Both the position numbers and the translations under genes were made by a program. Shown in pieces: positions 2,581 to 56,058 of a stretch of 64,000 bases of DNA. The notes beneath the pieces were generated by a model. It saw only the letters and a list, made by a program, of their open reading frames with translations. It did no database searches and had not been told where the DNA came from. This stretch comes from Parcubacteria group bacterium LiPW_41 (lineage in GTDB: Bacteria; Patescibacteriota; Minisyncoccia; UBA6257; GWB1-50-10). The stretch's first letter is position 1, and each line of letters opens with the position of its first letter. The stretch is taken from the NCBI GenBank assembly GCA_007375535.1, contig VMEM01000001.1:39462-103461 (forward strand), read 5' to 3'.

Positions 2581-2610
2581 AACCACCTTTTATTAGGTGG
2601 TTTTTTTTAG
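2581..2610. terminator. Bidirectional intrinsic terminator hairpin (ACCACCT/AGGTGGT) flanked by A and T runs
   Basis: Perfect 7-bp stem with AT flanks, lying between the stop of the 2607-3071 gene and the helicase start. Confidence 0.6.
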
Positions 2611-3071
2611 TACTGAATTGCCTCTAACTCAGTCGCTTCTATTGTTTTTGCGTCTCTGATGTTTGACTTACTTTTCACCGTCACCATCATTCCTGCCTTT
2701 ATTGCATTCACGTCCAACGTCTCTTGTTTCATATTTCCCTTAGAATCAATCGAAGCGGGATACAATGCAGTAATTTTTGTTTCTCCACTAACAAACACTT
2801 CTCGATCTATCTTTTTTGCTGGCGTTCCGTCGGCATGTGGAAGATAGTCACTAAAATCTGCTGTTTCAATAATAAGTCTTGCACCCACCGCCTCTTTTAC
2901 CAACCCCGATACTGCAAAAATTTCTTTTGGTGGTTCTGGAAATACTAAACTTATTACATCACGTAAATTTTTTGTTCCTTTGGTGTTGCCCCAATAATAC
3001 CCCCCTACCGCGCCAACAACCAATCCAATGACGAGTGCAAGAATGATTAAGATGAGAATTTTTTTCTCCAT
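2607..3071 (-). CDS. Hypothetical membrane-anchored protein with an N-terminal TM helix
   Basis: The ORF runs 2607-3113. The likely start is MEKKILILIIL at 3071, followed by a hydrophobic helix. Confidence 0.45.
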   Translation of the reverse strand: MEKKILILIILALVIGLVVGAVGGYYWGNTKGTKNLRDVISLVFPEPPKEIFAVSGLVKEAVGARLIIETADFSDYLPHADGTPAKKIDREVFVSGETKITALYPASIDSKGNMKQETLDVNAIKAGMMVTVKSKSNIRDAKTIEATELEAIQY

Positions 3072-3085
3072 ATGTAAATTATAGC

Positions 3086-3385
3086 AAACGGAGAGAGCGA
3101 AATGAATATGCAAAGTATATTCATTTCCGAACGAAGTGAAGATAAAAGCGAAGCTTTATAGCAAATGGAATGAGGAAATGGACACTATGTGTACATTTCC
3201 GAATGAAATGCAGTTACAAGCAAAGCTTTATAGCAAACGGAGAGAGCGAAATGAATATGCAAAGTATATTCATTTCCGAACGAGTGCAGCTGCACGAAGT
3301 GCTATAGCAAGTGAAGAGAGGAAAATGAATACGAAGAAATTTATTTTCCGAACGAACGTAGCTGCACGAAGTGCTATACACTATT
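3086..3385. repeat. Tandem array of four ~74-bp units, each carrying a GGAAATG...CATTTCC hairpin
   Basis: Units start at about 3086, 3164, 3236 and 3310 and each begins TATAGCAAA. Units 1 and 3 are identical over 56 nt and include GAAATGAATAT-gcaaagt-ATATTCATTTC. Confidence 0.7.
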
Positions 3386-3389
3386 AAAT

Positions 3390-4622
3390 TTATACAATTT
3401 CAAAAAAACGGTGTTTACCAATACGGAGAATATCCCCTTTTTTTGTCGCTATCATTTCCTTCTCATCCTTCTTTTGCTCATCATTTATTTTTATTGCTCC
3501 TTGAATAATGAGACGTCGTGCCTCACCCCTACTCTCAACTCCCGCCTCAATAAGTAAATCAATAAGTGGAAGTGTCTTTGTGATTTTTAATTTTGGCGCA
3601 TCTTCTGGGCGCTCTTTCTTTGAAAACACTCGAACAAACTCTTCACGCGCCTCAGTTGCTGCTTTTGTTGAGTGATACAATTTCACCAATTCTTCTGCAA
3701 CATACAATTTTATATCCCGAGGATTTATTCCTTTCTTTAGTGCAATTTTTATTTCCTCAACATTTTTTTGTGGAATGAGTGTTGCAAGCTCCGCAATTGG
3801 AACAATAAGTTCGTCAGGTGCTGCCATCATCTTTCCAAACATCGCAGTTGGAACATCATCAAGATTGATAAGCGTCCCTTCGGTTTTACTCATTTTCTTT
3901 CCTGTTGCAGGATCTTCGAGTAAACGATTAGTGATAACAAATTTTTCTTTATTTCGATATATTCGCTGTACGTCACGTCCTACAAGCATATTAAATGTTT
4001 GATCAGTGCCACCAATTTCCAAATCAACATCCATTGCATATGAATCGTATCCTTGCATTAATGGATAAAAAAATTCATGCAAATGAATTGGCTTCCCTGC
4101 TTGCAAACGCTCCTGAAACATACTCCGTTCAATCATTTGTTGAACGGTGAAATGAGAAGAAAATTCTATAACCTCTTCAAATGTTAATTTTGATAACCAC
4201 TTTGCATTGAATTTTACCTGTGCTGCATTTTGACCAGAAAACCGCAACACTTTTGATGCTTGAGTTTTAAATGTTTTTAAATTTTCTTTTACTTGCGCAC
4301 TAGTGAGTGAAACGCGTGCAGCGAGCTTGTCAGTTGGATCTCCGATTCTTCCAGTAAAATCACCAAAAAGTACAAACACCTCATGTCCTAAATCCTGAAA
4401 CCTGCGGAGCATAATTAAATTCTCTGCATGTCCTAAATGTAAATGTGGACTCGTTGGGTCAATTCCTAAATACAAACGAATCTTTTTTCCTGAAAATAAC
4501 ACTTTCTCGAGTGCTCCCCTTGTTGGATATATTGAGTCAACTGAACGGGTAAGCAATTCTTCAATTGCTGACTTATCCGTTGATACTTTTACAACGCCTT
4601 TCATATCTACCCATACTATCAC
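3390..4622 (-). CDS. tyrS: Tyrosyl-tRNA synthetase
   Basis: HIGH-type motif HLGH, KMSKT motif (KKMSKTEGT), and a C-terminal S4-like domain. Confidence 0.9.
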   Translation of the reverse strand: MIVWVDMKGVVKVSTDKSAIEELLTRSVDSIYPTRGALEKVLFSGKKIRLYLGIDPTSPHLHLGHAENLIMLRRFQDLGHEVFVLFGDFTGRIGDPTDKLAARVSLTSAQVKENLKTFKTQASKVLRFSGQNAAQVKFNAKWLSKLTFEEVIEFSSHFTVQQMIERSMFQERLQAGKPIHLHEFFYPLMQGYDSYAMDVDLEIGGTDQTFNMLVGRDVQRIYRNKEKFVITNRLLEDPATGKKMSKTEGTLINLDDVPTAMFGKMMAAPDELIVPIAELATLIPQKNVEEIKIALKKGINPRDIKLYVAEELVKLYHSTKAATEAREEFVRVFSKKERPEDAPKLKITKTLPLIDLLIEAGVESRGEARRLIIQGAIKINDEQKKDEKEMIATKKGDILRIGKHRFFEIV

Positions 4623-5997: not shown

Positions 5998-6267
5998 GCG
6001 CTCGGATACCCTTCGAGTCCTAAAATACAAATACAAAAAATCGCTCTTCGAGCGATATTTTGTATTTGTGCCCTCGTGAGGACTTTCCTCACCCGTCGCT
6101 TTCGCTCCTCCTTTGGAATCCTGGGTTCCTCGCTTCCGCTCATCCTCGACAAGCTCGGATTCGCTTTTCGCATTCGCGCGCTCGGATACCCTTCGAGTCC
6201 TAAAAATACAAATACAAAAAATCGCTCTTCGAGCGATATTTTGTATTTGTGCCCTCGTGAGGACTCG
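5998..6267 (-). repeat. tRNA-Arg trailer element, containing two 87-bp near-identical direct repeats
   Basis: The direct repeats are at 5998-6084 and 6178-6267. Each carries the last 17 nt of tRNA-Arg, a hairpin ACAAATACAAAA…TTTTGTATTTGT and an antisense T-arm (AGGACTCGAAGG). The 93-bp GC-rich spacer contains GAGCGAAAGCGACGG. Confidence 0.8.
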
Positions 6268-6321
6268 AACCTCAATTACGAGATCCGCAATCTCGCGTCC
6301 TATCCATTGAACGACGAGGGC
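6250..6321 (-). tRNA. tRNA-Arg, anticodon GCG as read
   Basis: Hand-folded cloverleaf with acceptor GCCCTCG/CGAGGGC, T-loop GGTTCGAGTCC and anticodon loop TTGCGGA. No encoded CCA. Confidence 0.75.
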
Positions 6322-7568: not shown

Positions 7569-9038
7569 TTAGTCTAGAAACACTAGATGATTTCCAATTC
7601 GTATATCTGATTCACACTCTACAAGCATTCCCACCTCCATGTCCTTCTCTGCTTCTGCAACATCCTTTTTATTTGATTGAAGATTGAGAATTCTTCCCTC
7701 TCCCGTTTTTCTCGTTCCATGCCACACTTCAAATGATTCATTTCTCAATATTGGACCACACAACACTTTTCCACCAATCACTCGCTCTTTTCCTTTTGGT
7801 TGTCCAAACACTCCAAGAATTTCAAGTGTTCTCTTTTCTTTTTCAATTGCGGTTTTTGCATATTCAGTAAGTGCATCAACAAGTTCATAAATAATATCTG
7901 AAGTAATAATATTTATTTTTTTTGTCTCACGCATGTTTTGAGCTGCTTTATCAATTTTTGTGTGAAACCCAATGATAGTTGCTTTCATCCCCTCTGCATC
8001 CTTTGTATCATTTTCAGTAATTGAACCAACAGAAGCTTTTATAATAATAATCGGAAGTGTAGTAACAAGTGATTCAATAGTATCTTTTAATACCTCAAGC
8101 GATCCAAGCTCATCTGCTTTCAAGAACAACGGAACCCTTTTTGATACATCATCTTCTGCAATCAAACTTTTTGTCACCTCGTGCTGTTCTCGTTCAAATT
8201 GTTCTAATGATGTACGGAGTACTTTCTCGTCTCTATGTGCACAAAATACCTCACCCACTTTTGGAGAATTTTCAAATCCAAATACAATTGCCGGTGCACT
8301 TGGAATTATTTCTTTTGCAGTTTTTCCTAAATAGTTTTCAAGTATTTTTACTTTTCCAATTGCAGTATGGGTTGCAATCATAGCTCCTTGCTCAAGTGAT
8401 CCATTTTTTACAATTACACTCGTCATCACACCACGTTTCGCATCCGATTTTACCGAAATGACAACGCCTGACGAAACATGATCTCCCGTACAATGGATAT
8501 CTTCAAGTTCTGATGCAAGAAGTAAAAGATCAAGTAGATCGGAAACACCCTCCCCTGTTTTTGCAGAAATTGCATGCCATGAAACATCCCCTCCTCGTCC
8601 CTCAAGATACACCCCTAATTGCATTAAATCATTAATTGCTTTATCAATATCTGCACCAGGTTTATCTATTTTGTTTATAGCAACAACAAATGGAACTTTT
8701 TCAGCAAGAATATATTTCAATGCATCTTTTGTTTGTGGTTTTACGCCATCATCTGCTGCTACAACTAAAATTGCTAAATCAGCAACACGTGCTCCACGAG
8801 CGCGCATCTTTGAAAATGCTTCATGTCCTGGTGTATCAATAAAAGTTATTTTTTGTCCCGCGTGTTCAATTTCGTATGCACCGATTGATTGAGTAATTCC
8901 TCCCGCCTCACGAAGTGCAACATTGGTACTTCGAATATAATCAAGTAATGTTGTTTTTCCATGATCAACATGACCCATAATAACCGCTATTGGCGGTCTT
9001 CGTTCTGGATTTTTTTGTTCTACTTTTTTGGGGGTCAT
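7569..9038 (-). CDS. infB: Translation initiation factor IF-2, short form without the long N-terminal region
   Basis: G-domain motif GHVDHGKTTLLD and a full IF-2 C-terminal domain architecture. Confidence 0.9.
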   Translation of the reverse strand: MTPKKVEQKNPERRPPIAVIMGHVDHGKTTLLDYIRSTNVALREAGGITQSIGAYEIEHAGQKITFIDTPGHEAFSKMRARGARVADLAILVVAADDGVKPQTKDALKYILAEKVPFVVAINKIDKPGADIDKAINDLMQLGVYLEGRGGDVSWHAISAKTGEGVSDLLDLLLLASELEDIHCTGDHVSSGVVISVKSDAKRGVMTSVIVKNGSLEQGAMIATHTAIGKVKILENYLGKTAKEIIPSAPAIVFGFENSPKVGEVFCAHRDEKVLRTSLEQFEREQHEVTKSLIAEDDVSKRVPLFLKADELGSLEVLKDTIESLVTTLPIIIIKASVGSITENDTKDAEGMKATIIGFHTKIDKAAQNMRETKKINIITSDIIYELVDALTEYAKTAIEKEKRTLEILGVFGQPKGKERVIGGKVLCGPILRNESFEVWHGTRKTGEGRILNLQSNKKDVAEAEKDMEVGMLVECESDIRIGNHLVFLD

Positions 9039-9059: not shown

Positions 9060-9286
9060 AAAGTTGCTTCGCTTTGAAATAATTAAAAAATGTACATTTT
9101 TTAATATGTAGTCCCAAGGGGAATCCTTTCAACTAATCACTCGCCGTCGCTCGTGATTGTTTCAAGCCTGGGCTCACGGTGTATTCTACTGAATACACAT
9201 CGCTCCGCCCTTCGTTTCCCCACACGAAACAAGAAATTGTTTCGTTTTGGGATAATTAAAAAAATCTAAAAATTTTTTTAATCAGT
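9060..9286 (-). repeat. tRNA-Glu trailer element
   Basis: The distal end carries TAGTCCCAAGGGGAATC (9109-9125), a copy of the tRNA-Glu 3' end, with similar A/T hairpin flanks. The core contains GGGGAAACG, the hairpins GTGTATTC/GAATACAC and CGAAACAA/TTGTTTCG, and GAGCGACGGCGAG. Confidence 0.75.
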
Positions 9287-9571: not shown

Positions 9572-10075
9572 ATGTCGAAGAGAAAGTGGACTCAAAAACA
9601 ACTCGAAGAAGCAATTAATTCTTCAACAAGCAATCGACAGGTTTTAAAAAAGTTGGGATTAAAGGAGGCGGGAGGAAATTATAGCCAAATAAAAAAATAC
9701 TCAAAAGAATTTAAAATCGATACTAGCCATTTCAAAGGTCAAGCGTGGAACAAAGGAAAGAAGGGACTAGGGAAGCCAAGAATCCCTTTATCAGAAATTT
9801 TGGTAGAAAATAGTAATTTCCAAAGTTTTAAATTAAAAAAAAGGTTATTTGCAGAAAAATTAAAATCTGAGTATTGTGAACACTGTGGGTGGGCAAAAAA
9901 ATCAAAAGATGGTAGGATTCCTCTTGAGCTCGATCATATAAATGGAAGAAGAAACGACAACAGAATAGAGAACCTTCGTATTCTTTGTCCAAATTGCCAC
10001 TCATTACAACCAACACATAGAGGTAAAAACATAAAGACTGCCCAGATGGCGGAACGGTATACGCGCAACACTTAA
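9572..10075 (+). CDS. HNH homing-endonuclease-like protein
   Basis: HNH motif CEHCGW…LELDHINGRRNDNRIENLRILCPNCHSL. The last 36 nt of the ORF overlap tRNA-Leu. Confidence 0.75.
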   Translation: MSKRKWTQKQLEEAINSSTSNRQVLKKLGLKEAGGNYSQIKKYSKEFKIDTSHFKGQAWNKGKKGLGKPRIPLSEILVENSNFQSFKLKKRLFAEKLKSEYCEHCGWAKKSKDGRIPLELDHINGRRNDNRIENLRILCPNCHSLQPTHRGKNIKTAQMAERYTRNT

Positions 10076-10122
10076 AATGTTGTGACCCAACGGTCTTGTG
10101 GGTTCGAATCCCACTCTGGGCA
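10040..10122 (+). tRNA. tRNA-Leu(UAA), type II
   Basis: Acceptor GCCCAGA/TCTGGGC, anticodon loop CTTAAAA and a long variable arm. Confidence 0.8.
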
Positions 10123-10350
10123 CAAATTCTACAACACCCTTCATGGGTGTTGTAGAATTTATTCATCAAGGGATTCGAAGGATATTCGAGCGCCCGAATG
10201 GGAAGAGTGAGTAAAATGAACGAAAGCGAGAAACCAAGGCTTCGGAGGAGGCACGAGAGTGCCGGAGGAGAAGAAATCCAACGTCGACCTACCAGTGAAT
10301 AAACCAAACACAAAACAATACCGCCAGTCCTTGGACTGGCGGTATTTTTA
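10123..10350 (+). repeat. tRNA-Leu trailer: terminator hairpin, a divergent GC-rich structured element, and a second terminator
   Basis: Hairpin TTCTACAACACCC/GGGTGTTGTAGAA, then the antisense T-arm AAGGGATTCGAAGG, GAACGAAAGCGAG, the hairpin GGCAC-GAGA-GTGCC, then ACCGCCAGTCC/GGACTGGCGGT with a T-run. Confidence 0.6.
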
Positions 10351-11001
10351 TTTTGCTTCTTTTTTTTCTTTCTTAAACAACTGATATGAATAAACAAAAA
10401 GTCCTATAATTCCGAAAATGAGTGGAATAAGAAACACAAGAAATGAGACAGTGGGAAATACAACACCAAGACATGCAACAACCCCTATAATTTTAAATAC
10501 TTTCCCTCCGAGTTTATGCGTTTTATCCCAAACCATTTCACTTGAAAGTGTCCATGGATTTCGAATACCCATAGTCCAATTCTGTTTTACCCGTTCAATA
10601 AGGAATCCCAATCCAATAAACAAGAAGCCAAAGAGAAACGGAAACACACGAGCGGGATCAATCCACGCTACAAGATTTGTTCCGATGATAAATAGTTGAA
10701 GGAGAAAAAAGAATGAACAGAGAAGAACAAGAAACGCATCATATATTCCCCTCATCTTTTCAATCACCTCTTTTTTTGGATCAAAATGGGGTACTGCAAC
10801 AAGAATTATGAGTAATACAAGTAAGATAATTGGAACAAATAAAATACCCCACAACTTCGACATGTATCCATTTACTTCCCCCATCGCCCCCCAGTGCGAC
10901 GCAATCTCGTCGGGAAGTACTGGGTAAAAATAAACCCCAACAAGTAGCGAGAGAACAATAATACCTAATGAAATTGCTACACCTTTAGTAAAAATCTTCA
11001 T
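10348..11001 (-). CDS. SdpI/YhfL-family membrane protein
   Basis: DUF1648-like YPVLPDEIASHW and the SdpI motif GIRNPWTLSSEMVWDKTH. Multi-TM. Confidence 0.7.
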   Translation of the reverse strand: MKIFTKGVAISLGIIVLSLLVGVYFYPVLPDEIASHWGAMGEVNGYMSKLWGILFVPIILLVLLIILVAVPHFDPKKEVIEKMRGIYDAFLVLLCSFFFLLQLFIIGTNLVAWIDPARVFPFLFGFLFIGLGFLIERVKQNWTMGIRNPWTLSSEMVWDKTHKLGGKVFKIIGVVACLGVVFPTVSFLVFLIPLIFGIIGLFVYSYQLFKKEKKEAK

Positions 11002-11190: not shown

Positions 11191-11372
11191 TGATGTGTGG
11201 ATTCGAACCGCAGGCTCCCTATTTTCTTAGTGAGCGAAGCGAGCTTAGAAAATAGCAGTGTCGCACATTGTGCGACCCGCAGTCATTATTTGAGAACGTA
11301 GGTCTCGAGTTCAGCAGAACGAGAGGAGAATCACTAACTTGTAAGCTCATTCATGCGATATATAATTGCTAG
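11186..11372 (+). repeat. Degenerate trailer-element copy after tRNA-Ser(UGA)
   Basis: Begins with the antisense T-arm GTGGATTCGAACC. Contains GTGAGCGAAGCGAGC, the hairpin GTCGCAC att GTGCGAC, and GGTCTCGAG. Confidence 0.45.
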
Positions 11373-14782: not shown

Positions 14783-14853
14783 TGGACCTACGGGGAGTCG
14801 AACCCCGACTTAGCGCATGCCATGCGCTTATTCTACCATTGAATTATAGGCCC
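14783..14853 (-). tRNA. tRNA-Ala(GGC)
   Basis: G3:U70 in the acceptor (GGGCCTA/TAGGTCC), anticodon loop ATGGCAT and T-loop GGTTCGACTCC. Confidence 0.8.
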
Positions 14854-15530
14854 ATATTTTTTCTTAATATTTCAAAGATAACTAAAAATTCATTAAAAAT
14901 ATTAGCAGAAAAATAATCTATTCGACACACGCCTTTATAATTCATTTTTCGTGATTTTTTATTAATAGAACGAGGATCAACTCGCGCTTTATAAAAACAA
15001 GATAAAGGAATATTAGTCAGCTTCGACCAAAAAATTTCCAACTTTTCGATGTTTTGATCATCCCTACACTGTAGGGTACACCTAAACTTACTCTCGTCAA
15101 CCTCATAACAACTCCTTAAAAGATTTAGAAATAATTTAATAATTAATGGATCAGAGTTGCCAATGGTAATACTCCCCTTTTTTGTTTTAGATCCCTCAGC
15201 TAAATAAAGCATAGCAAGAGTAATTTTTTTTGTTTTTTTGTCGTTTAATTCACCAATAACCCACTTATTTTCATTTAATAAATTTTCTAGGTATTTTTTT
15301 CTTTTCTCTTTTTTTACTTCCAGTGCTTTCTGTCTCGCCACCTTCAAATCTTTTACTCGTTTTGTTTCTAATTTTTGTTTTTGAAGATTTGAAAGTTCTA
15401 TACCTTTTAACCAAAATGAAATCGTACTTTTTGGAATGTTGGAACCAAGTGCTCTATTAATTTGCAGAAATGAATAACCCTTTTTTCTCAGGGCTATCAC
15501 ACGTTCTCTCATATTTTTTTGGGTGCTCAC
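14844..15530 (-). CDS. LAGLIDADG-family homing-endonuclease-like protein with an N-terminal HTH
   Basis: Single LAGLIDADG motif LAMLYLAEGSK. Its stop overlaps the 5' end of tRNA-Ala by 10 nt. Confidence 0.7.
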   Translation of the reverse strand: MSTQKNMRERVIALRKKGYSFLQINRALGSNIPKSTISFWLKGIELSNLQKQKLETKRVKDLKVARQKALEVKKEKRKKYLENLLNENKWVIGELNDKKTKKITLAMLYLAEGSKTKKGSITIGNSDPLIIKLFLNLLRSCYEVDESKFRCTLQCRDDQNIEKLEIFWSKLTNIPLSCFYKARVDPRSINKKSRKMNYKGVCRIDYFSANIFNEFLVIFEILRKNMGL

Positions 15531-15569: not shown

Positions 15570-15755
15570 TTTGTGGGCGATAAGGAATCGAACGTCGTCT
15601 CATCAGAATGAGACTCCCACGAACCCAGCGGTTCGTGCGCTCCGCCACTGGGAAACTCCCGTTTCCCCGACCCCTTTCCCAGTTCGAGTCCTGTATATCA
15701 CAAGATATAAAAACAACGCATTTGCTTTAGAAATAGTGCATTGTTTTTATCTATG
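15570..15755 (-). repeat. tRNA-Val(GAC) trailer element
   Basis: In tRNA orientation: a terminator hairpin, the antisense T-arm ATACAGGACTCGAAC, GGGAAAGGGGTCGGGGAAACGGGAGTTTCCC, the hairpins CACGAACC/GGTTCGTG and GTCTCAT/ATGAGAC, and a sense end GTTCGATTCCTTATCGCCCAC. Confidence 0.75.
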
Positions 15756-16387: not shown

Positions 16388-16590
16388 CTAATATCAAAAC
16401 AATACACTTCATGTGTATTGTTTTATATTCGGAGAGATTTAAACGGGAAAGGGGTCGGGAAAACGGAAGTTTTCCCGTGGTGGAAGTACTGAAACCGCAA
16501 GGTGTCAGAAAATTTCGTCTGCGAAATTTTGTTCAATTCCCTCCCCCTCCACAAACAAAAAACACCATACAAAGTGGTGTTTTTAATTTT
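16388..16590 (+). repeat. tRNA-Ser(CGA) trailer element
   Basis: A terminator hairpin, the antisense T-arm GGAGAGATTTAAAC, GGGAAAGGGGTCGGGAAAACGGAAGTTTTCCCG, TGGTGGAAG, the hairpin CTGAAACC-GCAA-GGTGTCAG, a pseudo-anticodon arm ATTTCG-TCTG-CGAAAT, the sense end GTTCAATTCCCTCCCCCTCCAC, and a second terminator. Confidence 0.8.
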
Positions 16591-47078: not shown

Positions 47079-47310
47079 AAAATGTTTCACGTGAAACATT
47101 TTTGAATGTTTGTTGATAAACATTTTTTTAACGATGTAGGCCTAGCTTGACTATCAGATTGTCAAAAAATGAAGCAGGTTTTCCTGGTTTTTCGGGTTTT
47201 TCCATTTTTTTAATAAAACCAACTAAACACACCCTGAAAATGTTTCACGTGAAACAATATTGTGCGACATATCAAAATTATGTAGGCCTGGCTTGACTAT
47301 CAGCTTTTGA
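47079..47310. repeat. Two ~78-bp units, each with a TGTTTCACGTGAAACA palindrome and a 24-bp direct repeat ATGTAGGCCTRGCTTGACTATCAG
   Basis: Perfect 26-bp palindrome AAAAATGTTTCACGTGAAACATTTTT at 47079-47105; a second copy of GTTTCACGTGAAAC at 47240-47258; the direct repeats are at 47133-47156 and 47281-47304. Confidence 0.7.
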
Positions 47311-52540: not shown

Positions 52541-53359
52541 CTAAATGACATTTTCGTCAACATTATTACATTTATAAAAGTTTTCAAATAATTTTGCCAC
52601 AAGTATTGGTCCGGTTCCCCCTGGGGTCGGCGTATAGAAAAAATTATCCGTTGTTGGTTTGAGTAGATCTCCACATAATTTCCCGTCGATAAACGAACAT
52701 CCAAAATCAATAACGAGCACACCGTTTTTTATCATTCCCTCATTCACAATATTTGGAACACCAGTTCCGAGTATAACTACGTCAGCATCTTTTATCTTTG
52801 ATAAATCATCTCCTTTGTCGAGAATTACCAATTGTTTTCCTTGCAATCGTAAATAATCAGAAATTGGCTTTCCCACTAAAAAACCGTTTCCCACAACCAC
52901 AAATGTTTCATGTGAAACATTTCCAAGAACCTGGTAGTGCGATAAAACCTCACAAAACGTGGATACTGACGGCGGAAGAATCCTCTGATCAGTTAAGAAC
53001 TGCCCATATGCAGACTCCGACAATACATCTAGATCCTTCTCTTTTGGCATAGAGTTTACTATTCGCCTTCTATCCAAATGAGAGGGAAGTGGAAGCTGAA
53101 CAATCAAGCCACCACACGTTTTTCCATGTCCAATTATTCCAATTTTTTTTCTTAATTCATCAACTTCTATCGATTCAGCAAATTGATAGGCTCGAAAATC
53201 AATATTAAGAACTTCTGCTATTTTCCTTTTCTGCTCCACAAATTTCTTTGATGCAGCATTCTCTCCAACAATAATAACCCCAAGGAATCTCTTTGGTGTT
53301 GGATGCTTTACTAATCTATCAATAATTTCTTTTGCAATTTTTCTTCCGTCTATAATCAC
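52541..53359 (-). CDS. folD: Bifunctional methylene-THF dehydrogenase / methenyl-THF cyclohydrolase
   Basis: N-terminus IIDGRKIA, and the motifs VVILGTG and PGGTGP. Confidence 0.8.
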   Translation of the reverse strand: MIIDGRKIAKEIIDRLVKHPTPKRFLGVIIVGENAASKKFVEQKRKIAEVLNIDFRAYQFAESIEVDELRKKIGIIGHGKTCGGLIVQLPLPSHLDRRRIVNSMPKEKDLDVLSESAYGQFLTDQRILPPSVSTFCEVLSHYQVLGNVSHETFVVVGNGFLVGKPISDYLRLQGKQLVILDKGDDLSKIKDADVVILGTGVPNIVNEGMIKNGVLVIDFGCSFIDGKLCGDLLKPTTDNFFYTPTPGGTGPILVAKLFENFYKCNNVDENVI

Positions 53360-55841: not shown

Positions 55842-56058
55842 CACAATAAAACATCATATTTCTCAATATGATGTTTTTGTATGAGGGGATTGAACAAGAA
55901 GGGGTGTTGGGGAAACGTTTGTTTCCCCATGGAGGAAGTATTGAAACCGAGTGGTTTCAAAGCGCAGTCTCGCCCGCAAGACGAGCAGTGAAATTTCCCC
56001 TCAACGCCCACACAAAAACAAAAACATCCTTTTCTAGGATGTTTTTGTTTTCTATTTT
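55842..56058 (+). repeat. tRNA-Val(UAC) trailer element
   Basis: Terminator AAAACATCATAT/ATATGATGTTTT, the perfect antisense T-arm GAGGGGATTGAAC, GGGGAAACGTTTGTTTCCCC, TGGAGGAAG, the hairpin TTGAAACC-GAGT-GGTTTCAA, GTCTCG…CGAG, a 20-nt copy of the tRNA 3' end TCCCCTCAACGCCCACACAA (56004-56023), and a second similar terminator. Confidence 0.8.

Follow-up and report, generated by a model that had tools for sequence, protein, structure and literature searches.

A small non-coding block behind a tRNA-Leu gene of a Parcubacteria bacterium is probably a copy of an apparently undescribed insertion element

Integrases that target tRNA genes typically duplicate the 3′ end of the tRNA from the T-loop onward. 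The small elements described here, found in CPR bacteria (Patescibacteria), resemble those of the tyrosine integrases (P4-type and SSV-type att sites), in that insertion occurs from the T-loop onward and restores an intact tRNA, a partial 3′ copy ends up displaced downstream, and one site is used repeatedly or in tandem. Unlike the P4- and SSV-type elements, the CPR elements are ~110-190 bp in size, have no integrase, contain an extra inverted copy of the target as well as a structured core, occur also at the 3′ ends of protein genes, and duplicate a segment of variable length. With MITEs and REP/BIME sequences they share small size, a non-coding and hairpin-rich character, multiple copies, polymorphism between relatives, and sometimes a nested or tandem arrangement. 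In contrast to these sequences, the "ends" of the CPR elements are copies of the target rather than fixed terminal inverted repeats, the duplication ranges from 6 to 25 nt, and the orientation relative to the host gene is strict; to our knowledge, there is no parent insertion sequence. A MITE was rejected as a description, since the arms differ with each host tRNA and the duplications are not of a fixed length.

RNA-based systems offer further parallels. Like the bridge (seek) RNAs of IS110/IS1111 and the omega-RNAs of TnpB/IscB, the CPR elements would form a structured RNA of ~100-180 nt (predicted, in the present case) with target-matching flanks, and, as in the bridge RNAs, segments of the element match both DNA strands. 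They differ in that no recombinase or nuclease gene adjoins them, no Rfam family matches, the two arms pair with each other, and one arm misfits its target in a recent insertion. An IS110 bridge RNA or a TnpB/IscB omega-RNA was rejected, because no cognate gene was found beside the cores or in the window (the whole 64,000-nt stretch of DNA that was analyzed, from Parcubacteria group bacterium LiPW_41). The Mauriceville and Varkud retroplasmids of Neurospora have a tRNA-like 3′ end and switch template onto tRNA 3′ ends; these plasmids, and tRNA-related retroelements, integrate beside tRNA genes via hybrid cDNA and homologous recombination. These features are those of the RNA/cDNA route favored below, whereas the retroplasmids are autonomous and encode their own reverse transcriptase, and the CPR elements, which are tiny and reside in the chromosome, are not known to have one. 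Bacterial group II introns of class C are likewise selfish elements that reside at transcript 3′ ends by terminator hairpins and leave the gene unharmed; they are RNA-based, and their choice of target involves base pairing. The CPR elements are 5-20 times smaller, have no group II domains and no Rfam match, leave the target duplicated, and come with a hairpin of their own.

The tRNA-Leu(UAA) locus of the window is composed of the following features, the arm beginning less than ~50 nt from the gene end and on the same strand:

10040-10123, + strand: host gene tRNA-Leu(UAA), no encoded CCA (ARAGORN; Rfam tRNA, 61.5 bits)
10121-10126, + strand: left direct-repeat copy CACAAA, the last three tRNA nucleotides plus three trailer nucleotides (alignment with the empty site of relative L135)
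10124-10160, + strand: element-borne 16-bp hairpin (dG -24.5 kcal/mol, z -9.3)
10127-10314, + strand: inserted block of 188 bp (missing in L135; other cores in L137 and L005/L006)
10169-10182, + strand: 5′ arm ("anti-T") AGGGATTCGAAGGA, reverse complement of the tRNA at 10170-10179
10180-10273, + strand: type-B core, with homologues in the Arg, Ser(CGA), and Ser copies (blastn, alignment)
10218-10230, + strand: GAACGAAAGCGAG, inside the type-B core
10232-10239, + strand: AACCAAGG, inside the type-B core
10250-10263, + strand: GNRA hairpin GGCAC-GAGA-GTGCC, inside the type-B core
10274-10308, + strand: degenerate 3′ arm AAATCCAACGTCGACCTAC, then an A-rich tail, where the tRNA 3′-end copy AATCCCACTCTGGGCAC is expected
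10309-10314, + strand: right direct-repeat copy CACAAA (alignment with the L135 empty site)
10317-10346, bidirectional: native 13-bp terminator (terminator scan and folding)
10348-11001, - strand: convergent SdpI-family gene, which shares the terminator at 10317-10346 with the tRNA-Leu unit

Comparison with relatives revealed that the block is polymorphic. In L135, whose neighboring SdpI protein is 95% identical, the sequence reads tRNA-Leu...GGGCACAAA|ATAATACCGCC, with the tRNA abutting the terminator and no block in between; the window has 188 bp more at this site, bracketed by CACAAA, and its terminator at 10317-10346 is orthologous to the single terminator of the L135 empty site. A different core is found behind tRNA-Leu in L137 (SdpI 87% identical), where the tRNA end is perfectly duplicated over 22-25 nt, and a third core, of type A, in L005/L006 (60%). 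The site is empty in L001, L003, and L004, and L138/L139 are identical to the window. The absence of the block from a 95% relative, and the presence of other cores in the 87% and 60% relatives, therefore indicate an insertion or deletion rather than a fixed gene. As the Leu copy has no perfect 3′ arm and its sole clean repeat is 6 nt long, loss by microhomology deletion in L135 is conceivable, and would be a possible alternative to insertion in the window.

The original prediction described a GC-rich segment between two terminators, and such a segment does exist as the discrete 188-bp block: the GC content is 0.44-0.52 over 10150-10349, compared to 0.27-0.31 in the flanks and a window mean of 0.37. 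The strong terminator at its end was likewise found, in the form of the 13-bp bidirectional hairpin. The first terminator, which had been assigned to tRNA-Leu itself, was found by comparison with L135 to lie in the inserted DNA, as all of the 10124-10160 hairpin except its first 3 nt (trailer AAA) falls within the missing block. Owing to a short T-run, this hairpin narrowly misses the criteria of the terminator scan; it now acts as a terminator-like structure directly 3′ of tRNA-Leu, replacing the native terminator, which is displaced 190 bp downstream of the tRNA.

Reverse complementation of the T-loop/T-stem sequence TTCGAATCCC of tRNA-Leu (10103-10112) gives exactly the 5′ arm sequence GGGATTCGAA (10170-10179). 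The antisense T-arm-like sequence noticed earlier is real and corresponds to a defining arm of the element. All 10 positions match and the sequences diverge beyond them; ~7 of the 10 bases are generic for T-loops, so that the specificity of the Leu 5′ arm appears weak, with mostly generic T-loop complement and ~3 specific bases. The 3′ arm AAATCCAACGTCGACCTAC shows ~11 matches, with indels, to the tRNA end AATCCCACTCTGGGCAC, leaving CACAAA as the only clean repeat, and has either decayed or been carried over from another target. Folding against shuffled sequences placed the GNRA hairpin with its GAGA loop where it had been predicted (dG -13.5, z -4.2). The description of the segment as structured holds for sub-hairpins; it does not hold for the Leu core of 132 nt as a whole, whose global fold is no better than that of shuffles (z -0.8). 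No protein appears to be encoded, in line with the earlier remark that no ORF fits: the ORFs are mechanical, the longest (9828-10397, - strand) matches nothing in Pfam, and a conserved ORF would not be compatible with the observed indels and replacement of cores.

The segment had also been called a divergent family member, and its family was found within the window. The whole length of the Leu segment can be aligned with the tRNA-Arg(GCG) element (6080-6200; 122 nt, 67% identity, blastn E 3.6e-10), as well as with three more copies, taken from relatives and metagenomes, with 67-71% identity across the other copies. In this alignment, GAACGAAAGCGAG of the Leu core, which is present as predicted, lines up with GAGCGGAAGCGAG of the Arg copy (6129-6141) and not with GAGCGAAAGCGAC, the counterpart originally proposed; the latter aligns with the Leu GNRA hairpin. 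The motif GARCGAAAGCGAS occurs three times in the window, compared to an expected 0.08. Compensatory changes are seen in the five-sequence type-B alignment, e.g., CGC-GAAT-GCG to CCC-GAAT-GGG. The type-B sample consists of these five alignable copies and a truncated remnant in L005/L006, and with five such copies the predicted core structure is weakly supported. Type B, common to the Leu and tRNA-Arg(GCG) copies, is a rarer core type. At the tRNA-Arg(GCG) locus, the element is followed by a second copy of the terminator (6025-6069) and then by another unit, which is truncated (5999-6022), giving a tandem period of 181 nt. Elements of this architecture were found at seven of the nine tRNA-unit ends in the window, including:

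6070-6200, - strand: type-B element behind tRNA-Arg(GCG) (6249-6321), the closest paralogue, with 5′ arm, core, and perfect tRNA 3′-end copy (6070-6086)
9108-9221, - strand: type-C element behind tRNA-Glu(UUC), 3′ arm GATTCCCCTTGGGACTAC (9108-9125), missing from the orthologous sites of L001 and L003
11199-11335, + strand: type-D element behind tRNA-Ser(UGA), 5′ arm GGATTCGAACC (11199-11209), degenerate 3′ arm, 3′ limit approximate
15573-15696, - strand: type-A element behind tRNA-Val(GAC) (CM R1, 78.8 bits), missing in L001
16431-16552, + strand: type-A element behind tRNA-Ser(CGA) (CM R1, 81.5 bits)
55883-56011, + strand: type-A element behind tRNA-Val(UAC) (CM R1, 67.4 bits), with a perfect 13-nt 5′ arm and a perfect 15-16-nt 3′ arm

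The tRNA-Ser(CGA) site carries a type-B core in L001 and no recognizable element of this architecture in L003. The covariance model CM R1 was built from the commonest core, type A (P1 / GUGGNGGAAG / P2). A scan of the window with filters off returned 15615-15678, 16447-16511, and 55898-55963 only, with no match in 10127-10314; types B, C, and D were all missed. A single superfamily with type A was rejected on this ground, and only the architecture and a few short motifs are claimed as common; types A-E may be non-homologous to each other.

At least four core types share a common layout, in which the tRNA is followed by a hairpin, an arm complementary to the T-loop/T-stem, a core of 80-110 nt, a copy of the tRNA 3′ end, and a terminator. 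The site of insertion is the last ~15-25 bp of the gene or lies just 3′ of the gene. A complementary arm was detected behind 75 of the 218 tRNAs in the fetched loci, compared with 3 when shuffled queries were used. In the 5′ arm, tRNA positions 53-64 are each matched by 73-100% of copies; the match has a sharp boundary at G53 and reaches to ~66. The 3′ copy matches positions 60-74 in 87-100% of copies and is followed by a few trailer bases; the two arms thus match opposite strands of adjacent, overlapping target segments (53-66 and 60-74). The arms vary with the host tRNA and, unlike in the Leu copy, perfect 3′ copies occur in other family members. Because a copy of the gene's 3′ end stands on either side of the inserted unit, the gene is spared rather than inactivated. 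Direct copying of the T-stem 5′ strand and T-loop was rejected as the source of the 5′ arm, as non-palindromic T-loops (TTCAAT, TTCAAAT) are reverse-complemented in the arm.

Type-A cores were found in at least 120 stretches, nearly all from Patescibacteria and spanning many CPR classes; 78 of 131 matches lie behind tRNAs, which represent 33 anticodons. The same layout is seen at the ends of the protein genes rpsI and lepA, and complementary 5′ arms also occur at non-tRNA targets (12 of 13 nt in L024; 19-20 nt in L013). In 75 cases the core points in the same direction as the upstream tRNA, versus 1-2 in the opposite direction, a bias that rules out the flip/flop of core orientation expected from a rolling-hairpin model. 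The helices are 99.3% paired and include five covarying pairs, G-U pairs outnumber A-C pairs, and of the GCGAAGC/GCGAAAGC motifs, 31 are in sense and one is in antisense. Core sequences are near-invariant across CPR classes, with highly conserved purine-rich joining regions. Tandem units were found at the window Arg locus and in L003 and L117, and decayed copies and nested insertions are also present in the family.

Searches for known families and for associated machinery gave negative results. Rfam 15 yielded only tRNAs at the gathering score in the whole window and, at E<=10, nothing inside 10160-10300, the sub-threshold matches all falling on the terminator; the earlier rejection of SRP RNA was borne out, and known ribozymes, HEARO, and group II introns were likewise rejected for lack of an Rfam match. 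The type-A copies and six further loci returned only tRNAs and no other family. No reverse transcriptase, integrase, or transposase was found among the ~50 ORFs of the window, which are of a housekeeping nature; RecA is encoded there. When the ORFs lying up to 2.5 kb from 128 cores were clustered all against all, the only recurrent families were spurious ORFs over the element and housekeeping genes, and a neighboring mobilizing gene was rejected on this basis. The type-A pattern was absent from the 2.9 million viral contigs of IMG/VR, which argues against a viral vector. An integrase-mediated integrative element was rejected as well, because the insert is only 188 bp, contains no ORF with a family match, and is not accompanied by an integrase in the window.

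We consider it probable that the block at 10127-10314 is a copy of a small, selfish, non-coding, non-autonomous CPR/Patescibacteria insertion element that rebuilds the 3′ end of its target. The family is apparently undescribed, a full-text literature search having found no description of one like it. This reading is built on established observations, namely the architecture, the relationship by homology with the Arg copy, the polymorphism between filled and empty sites, the recurrence of one core behind different tRNAs with changed arms, the bias in strand, and the covariation of the helices. From these we infer that the core is a recognition module for machinery encoded elsewhere. That the active form is a sense-strand RNA is a tentative proposal, to which we give somewhat less than an even chance. 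The element would be co-transcribed with the tRNA, its RNA would be copied by a trans-acting reverse transcriptase primed from the nicked 3′ end of the target, and host recombination, including RecA, would fix the copy. With target-primed copying, the 3′ arm would come from the target and the 5′ arm from the donor. Evidence on arm origin comes from the recent Leu-site insertion of L137, in which the 3′ arm is perfect for Leu and the 5′ arm fits a T-stem CCTCC instead, and from the type-B copy at tRNA-Ser(CGA) of L001, which retains GGGTGAGG, the complement of the Arg T-stem. The RNA/cDNA route alone does not explain the perfectly complementary 5′ arms at non-tRNA targets (L024, L013). On a bolder reading, which we regard as doubtful, the elements would be non-coding payloads of an undescribed, CPR-wide nucleic-acid-guided insertion system, in which a conserved ~70-nt core would recruit a trans enzyme, the two arms would read both strands of the target 3′ end, and the gene would be rebuilt on insertion. 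Under RNA- or ssDNA-guided programmable insertion, which we judge unlikely, the arms would serve as guides in the manner of IS110 bridge RNAs or TIGR-Tas dual spacers; the sense strand of the target would be paired with the 5′ arm and its antisense strand with the 3′ arm, and a recombinase or nuclease encoded in trans would insert the element at sites matched by both arms. The matching of opposite strands by the arms, the combination of one core with arms for many targets, protein genes included, and the strong conservation of the purine-rich joining regions are all consistent with guidance, and dual-guide systems do occur in CPR bacteria (PMC12045711). The example, TIGR-Tas, uses dual spacers and is hosted by CPR bacteria, but was rejected as a description of the family because it is a different system (PMC12045711). 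Guidance is difficult to reconcile with the lack of an associated protein at the at least 120 loci or in the window, with the mismatch between the L137 5′ arm and its target T-stem and the degenerate Leu 3′ arm, and with frequent retargeting, which would demand simultaneous rewriting of both arms.

The sense-specific structure, the covariation, and the GNRA-type loops might also be expected of a structured small RNA or 3′ trailer, made in one transcript with the tRNA, that benefits the host by pairing with the T-arm or mimicking an acceptor/T minihelix, with possible roles in tRNA processing, in quality control, or as a decoy for tRNA-targeting toxins or integrases. The strong conservation of the core across CPR classes fits such an RNA, as do old insertions that keep complementarity to the real tRNA; the arm of the Val(GAC) element tracks a T-stem change between the window and L005. 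We nevertheless find a host function quite improbable: the arm fails to track the tRNA in L003, elements come and go between 95% relatives, core types are swapped at one site, the same architecture recurs at protein-gene ends, copies are found decayed, tandem, and nested, and the strong hairpin that often lies between tRNA and element should limit read-through. In most tRNA-linked copies, the core is flanked by a T-loop complement and a pseudo-T-loop (GTGAGAT or GTGAAAT), L108 contains a single perfect long palindrome from the T-loop through the terminator, and duplication lengths vary between 6 and 25 nt. These features might suggest that no dedicated machinery is involved and that the elements spread and gain their arms by replication template switching and quasi-palindrome correction, with the palindromic, near-universal T-loop (TTCGAA) as microhomology on either side of the core; this would leave unexplained both the near-invariant cores across CPR classes and the insertions at protein-gene ends lacking T-loop homology, and we hold it to be very improbable. 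Finally, the duplication of the tRNA 3′ end from the T-loop onward and the extra partial tRNA 3′ fragments found close by in L021 and L096 recall attL/attR scars, left by integrase-mediated integration and excision of larger elements at tRNA genes. Scars of this kind hardly account for the uniform small size, the conserved structured cores, the inverted arm, and the identical cores at many tRNAs, no integrase was found in the window or beside the cores, and this origin is in our view extremely improbable.

CPR/Patescibacteria genomes are tiny, yet most tRNA transcription units in the window precede a selfish-looking structured element. If the present description holds, these elements would form a class of mobile DNA that is abundant and apparently unreported; they would single out tRNA 3′ ends as hot spots of insertion, would confuse the annotation of tRNAs, terminators, and non-coding RNAs in CPR genomes, and would provide natural filled and empty alleles usable for strain typing. 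It would also pose the puzzle of how a gene-less element of 120 nt gains arms that fit every new target and yet does the gene no damage. Should the arms be guides, the family would represent a new programmable, gene-sparing insertion system, naturally retargetable to tRNAs and protein genes.

The HNH ORF of the window (9572-10075) has only the HNH domain in common with IscB, scoring 25 bits where the cut-off is 175. The helix-turn-helix (HTH) ORF at 14844-15530 has no relative in Pfam, NCBIfam, or PDB; it adjoins four cores, and a LAGLIDADG-like motif can be recognized by eye. It resembles a free-standing homing endonuclease and is probably an independent selfish gene.

The GC-rich non-coding block behind tRNA-Leu(UAA) (the Leu segment; 188 bp, 10127-10314) lies in a window with a GC content of 37% and 13 tRNA genes. 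The site comprises the following features:

9572-10075 (+), HNH endonuclease ORF, overlapping the first 36 nt of tRNA-Leu
10040-10123, tRNA-Leu(UAA)
10124-10160, 16-bp hairpin directly 3′ of tRNA-Leu (dG -24.5 kcal/mol, z -9.3)
10170-10179, GGGATTCGAA, exact reverse complement of the tRNA-Leu T-loop/T-stem sequence TTCGAATCCC at 10103-10112
10317-10346, 13-bp bidirectional terminator, common to the tRNA-Leu side and the convergent SdpI-family gene
10348-11001, SdpI-family gene, convergent

About 100 nt of the segment have a GC content of 44-52% and include both GAACGAAAGCGAG and the GGCAC-GAGA-GTGCC hairpin, whose z-score is -4.2. The features on which a structured segment had been predicted are present, but the 132-nt core as a whole folds no better than shuffled sequence (z -0.8). 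The antisense T-arm-like sequence noticed earlier proved to be an exact 10-nt complement. An absence of fitting ORFs had also been claimed, and the overlapping ORFs are indeed mechanical, the longest having no Pfam match. The Rfam scan proposed with the original prediction gave no match to the Leu segment at gathering thresholds and none at E<=10. In blastn, the segment was found to be homologous to the copy behind tRNA-Arg(GCG) (67% identity over 122 nt, E 3.6e-10), which bears out its description as a divergent family member.

The same layout was found in the window behind tRNA-Arg(GCG), Glu(UUC), Ser(UGA), Val(GAC), Ser(CGA), and Val(UAC). Behind the tRNA come, in order, a hairpin or terminator; a 5′ arm, the reverse complement of the tRNA's own T-loop and T-stem 3′ strand; 80-110 nt of GC-rich core; a 3′ arm, which directly repeats the T-stem 3′ strand, acceptor 3′ strand, and discriminator; and a terminator. 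Such an element stands behind seven of the nine tRNA-unit 3′ ends, and none was found behind the Cys and Ala units. The tRNA-Arg locus carries a partial tandem repeat of the unit with a 181-nt period.

Comparison loci were found through homologues of the neighbouring SdpI-family protein in Candidatus Paceibacterota/Parcubacteria, on contigs syntenic with the window.

Occupancy of tRNA sites in the window and in comparison loci (L numbers; percentages give SdpI identity; letters A to E denote core types)
L138 and L139 (100%): Leu site with the same block as the window
L135 (95%): Leu site empty; tRNA-Leu...GGGCACAAA directly joins the same terminator
L137 (87%): Leu site with a type-E core, a new hairpin, and a perfect 22-25-nt duplication, GAATCCCACTCTGGGCACAAAA
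L005 and L006 (60%): Leu site with a type-A core, its arms fitting their own tRNA-Leu
L001 (86%), L003 (83%), and L004 (59%): Leu site empty
Glu site: filled in the window and L005/L006; empty in L001, L003, and L004
Val(GAC) site: filled in the window; empty in L001
Cys site: empty in the window; two tandem units in L003
Ala site: filled only in L005/L006 among the compared loci
Ser(CGA) site: type A in the window; type B in L001

The type-E core at the L137 Leu site is the one found behind tRNA-Arg(GCG) in L001/L003. Relative to L135, the window has 188 bp more (10127-10314), between CACAAA at 10121-10126 and at 10309-10314. This comparison indicates that the Leu segment is an insertion, that the first hairpin is part of the insert, and that the second terminator is native. 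The conclusion drawn is that 10127-10314 represents a non-autonomous insertion element of candidate-phyla-radiation (CPR) bacteria that spares the genes it targets; this copy has a type-B core. It brings its own hairpin, its 5′ arm is weakly specific, and its 3′ arm is degenerate. One of two explanations would account for the degeneracy: either the copy is old, and L135 lost its own by deletion between the CACAAA repeats, or insertion was off-register and carried along the 3′ arm of the previous host.

Type-A cores run from GAARGGGGUC through P1 (GGGRAAAC / GUUUYCCC), GUGGNGGAAG, and P2 (NNNNAACC-tetraloop-GGUUNNNN) to a variable tail, whose end is often GAGCGAAGCG. In a 34-sequence seed, 99.3% of cells were paired, with five covarying pairs, and the structure outscored 500 of 500 shuffles and every slid register. 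G-U pairs outnumber A-C pairs in the helices, and the mini-hairpin motifs GCGAAGC and GCGAAAGC were counted 31 times on the sense strand and once on the antisense strand. The pairing, the G-U excess, and the motif polarity argue that the sense strand is the folded strand, as RNA or as single-stranded DNA of that polarity. The type-A covariance model detected exactly three copies in the window and gave no match in the Leu, Arg, Glu, and Ser(UGA) elements; thus, the architecture is common to at least four core types between which no homology could be demonstrated. Types A to D were counted, with E in relatives. Type B, to which the Leu segment belongs, is rare: five copies can be aligned (two in the window, one in L001, and distinct ones in L129 and L130 from a metagenome-wide scan), a truncated remnant lies behind tRNA-Ser(UGA) in L005/L006, and few compensatory changes lie behind the predicted structure.

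A hairpin module of ~45 nt, CTCCCTGTTTG..CAAGAGCGAAGCGATTG..CAAACAGCAG, forms the main core of type-D elements, is nested in a type-A core (L003 Val(GAC), 2641-2965), and stands alone in L100 (~7650-7710, minus strand), so that the cores look like mosaics of smaller hairpin modules. One type-A subfamily (L014, L026, L055, L079, L107, L114, L121) has an additional GCAGYGAGCG..CGAGCGYT hairpin, and at its flanks stand imperfect but conserved palindromes (..ATTCATCCCCGCAG..CTGCGGGGATGAAT..) rather than tRNA ends; its L014 copy lies between dnaA and rpmH, and no Rfam family adjoins the subfamily. Short GC-rich palindromes, CCGTCCTAGGCGGA, CAGCCTTGGGCTG, and GCCTGCCGGTAGGCAGG, occur within other elements (L001 14030-14075, 14180-14210, and 7195-7225), one of them in the duplicated 3′ end of tRNA-Arg, and point to a further, very small family of hairpin repeats.

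In one-genome-per-species contigs, the type-A core pattern was found in at least 120 stretches. The matches listed are nearly all from Patescibacteria, of many classes, and the few from other bins are about as numerous as expected by chance. Among 131 core matches listed, 78 lie at most 400 nt downstream of a same-strand tRNA (33 different anticodons). Orientation hardly varies: 75 cores run the same way as an upstream tRNA, and only 1-2 run the opposite way. The bracket of gene end, inverted copy, core, and direct copy also occurs at the rpsI and lepA 3′ ends and at other non-tRNA sites. In the fetched loci, a complementary arm (at least 10/12) was found within 170 nt downstream of 75 of 218 tRNAs, against three in a shuffled control, a fraction that is biased because these loci were selected for type-A cores. 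In a position profile, agreement of the 5′ arm with the tRNA covers positions 53-64 (73-100% of copies); it is sharply bounded at G53 and fades toward 72. For the 3′ copy, agreement covers positions 60-74 (87-100%). The T-loop part of the 3′ copy shows a recurrent change, usually from TC to GA, that creates tandem G.A pairs facing the 5′ arm. Flanks past the duplicated tRNA end are mostly unrelated, so the duplication normally spans ~13-25 nt; they match (at least 23/30) in about five cases, at least some of which are tandem units, as in L117.

The same core occurs with differing arms at different host tRNAs: type A with Val, Ser, and Leu tRNAs, type B with Arg, Leu, and Ser, type C with Glu, Cys, and Ala, and type E with Arg and Leu. 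The L137 insertion, which is demonstrably young, has a 3′ arm that copies tRNA-Leu perfectly, trailer included, and a 5′ arm, GGAGGATTCGAAC, suited to a T-stem CCTCC, not the Leu CCCAC. The type-B copy at Ser(CGA) in L001 keeps GGGTGAGG, the complement of the Arg T-stem, and the 5′ arms of the Gln(CUG) elements in L090 and L096 suit a T-stem other than that of the present host. These observations agree with a mode of insertion that would generate the 3′ arm from the target and take over the 5′ arm from the donor. Perfect 5′ arms of 19-20 nt occur in L100 and L108, the latter an unbroken palindrome from T-loop through terminator, and such arms also at protein genes in L013 (19-20 nt) and L024 (12/13). 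These arms would reflect either a second, perfecting process, for example fold-back copying or quasi-palindrome correction, or an origin of the copies by homing into the same gene. The Arg locus of the window, the Arg and Cys loci of L003, and L117 have tandem units, which could stem from template jumping or from unequal exchange between direct repeats.

Pfam searches of ~50 window ORFs returned housekeeping genes, RecA, RecO, and FtsK among them, and no reverse transcriptase, integrase, or transposase. No recurrent protein family was found within 2.5 kb of cores in other genomes, and the type-A pattern had no match in IMG/VR. The elements are therefore non-autonomous, if mobile at all. The route tentatively favoured is spread via a sense-RNA/cDNA intermediate, in which copying would be primed from the 3′ end of the target and the new copy fixed by host recombination. 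Ranked behind it, and unlikely, is a guide-type recombinase system; bridge RNAs and dual-guide RNAs likewise have segments matching both target strands, but here no recombinase is adjacent, and TIGR-Tas, a CPR dual-guide system, is different. Improbable to a greater degree is a small RNA of benefit to the host, followed by passive template switching via T-loop microhomology. Integrase scars are very hard to credit: tRNA-targeting integrative elements share the landing site and the restoration of the tRNA, whereas the present elements have no integrase. MITEs are alike in size and gene-lessness, but have fixed terminal repeats and a fixed target-site duplication, which these elements lack. Full-text literature searches found no description of the family. 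The elements are rated as a kind of non-autonomous element targeting tRNA 3′ ends; that they are something categorically new is the less likely reading, but one with a real chance.

Only two window genes look selfish, the HNH ORF and an HTH ORF (14844-15530, minus strand, 228 aa) inserted between the Val(GAC) element and tRNA-Ala. The former occurs in L135, L137, L138, and L139 as it does in the window, and is missing from L001 and L003-L006; tRNA-Leu(UAA) is clearly different in L001, L003, and L005/L006, and that of L004 is nearer the window's. The HNH gene and tRNA-Leu may be a replaced cassette. The HTH ORF has an N-terminal HTH and, by eye, a LAGLIDADG-like motif (LAMLYLAEGSK); it is absent from the same site in L001, L003, and L005, its homologues adjoin tRNAs in L040, L084, and L101, and no relative was found in Pfam, NCBIfam, or PDB. 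A GIY-YIG endonuclease ORF lies within the D-arm of tRNA-Ser(CGA) (L001 6925-7240; L003 1852-2167), where a 13-nt duplication, GGAGGGGTGGCTG, keeps the tRNA intact, a protein-coding counterpart of the elements' gene-sparing insertion style.

Two other repeats were observed in the window. A tandem array of four ~72-75-nt units (3079-3390) adjoins an ORF without a Pfam match (2607-3113, minus strand). Each unit has a conserved TATAGCAAAYGGAR.GAG box, a hairpin, and a CCGAAYGAA box, and the hairpin stems vary in sequence between units with pairing kept. The array is reminiscent of the stem-loop guide arrays reported from CPR bacteria (PMC12045711). The palindrome AAAATGTTTCACGTGAAACATTTT occurs three times (47079-47104, 47237-47262, and 52900-52925), two copies being followed ~30 nt further on by a 38-nt repeat (ATGTAGGCCTAGCTTGACTATCAG...), and may be an operator-like site.
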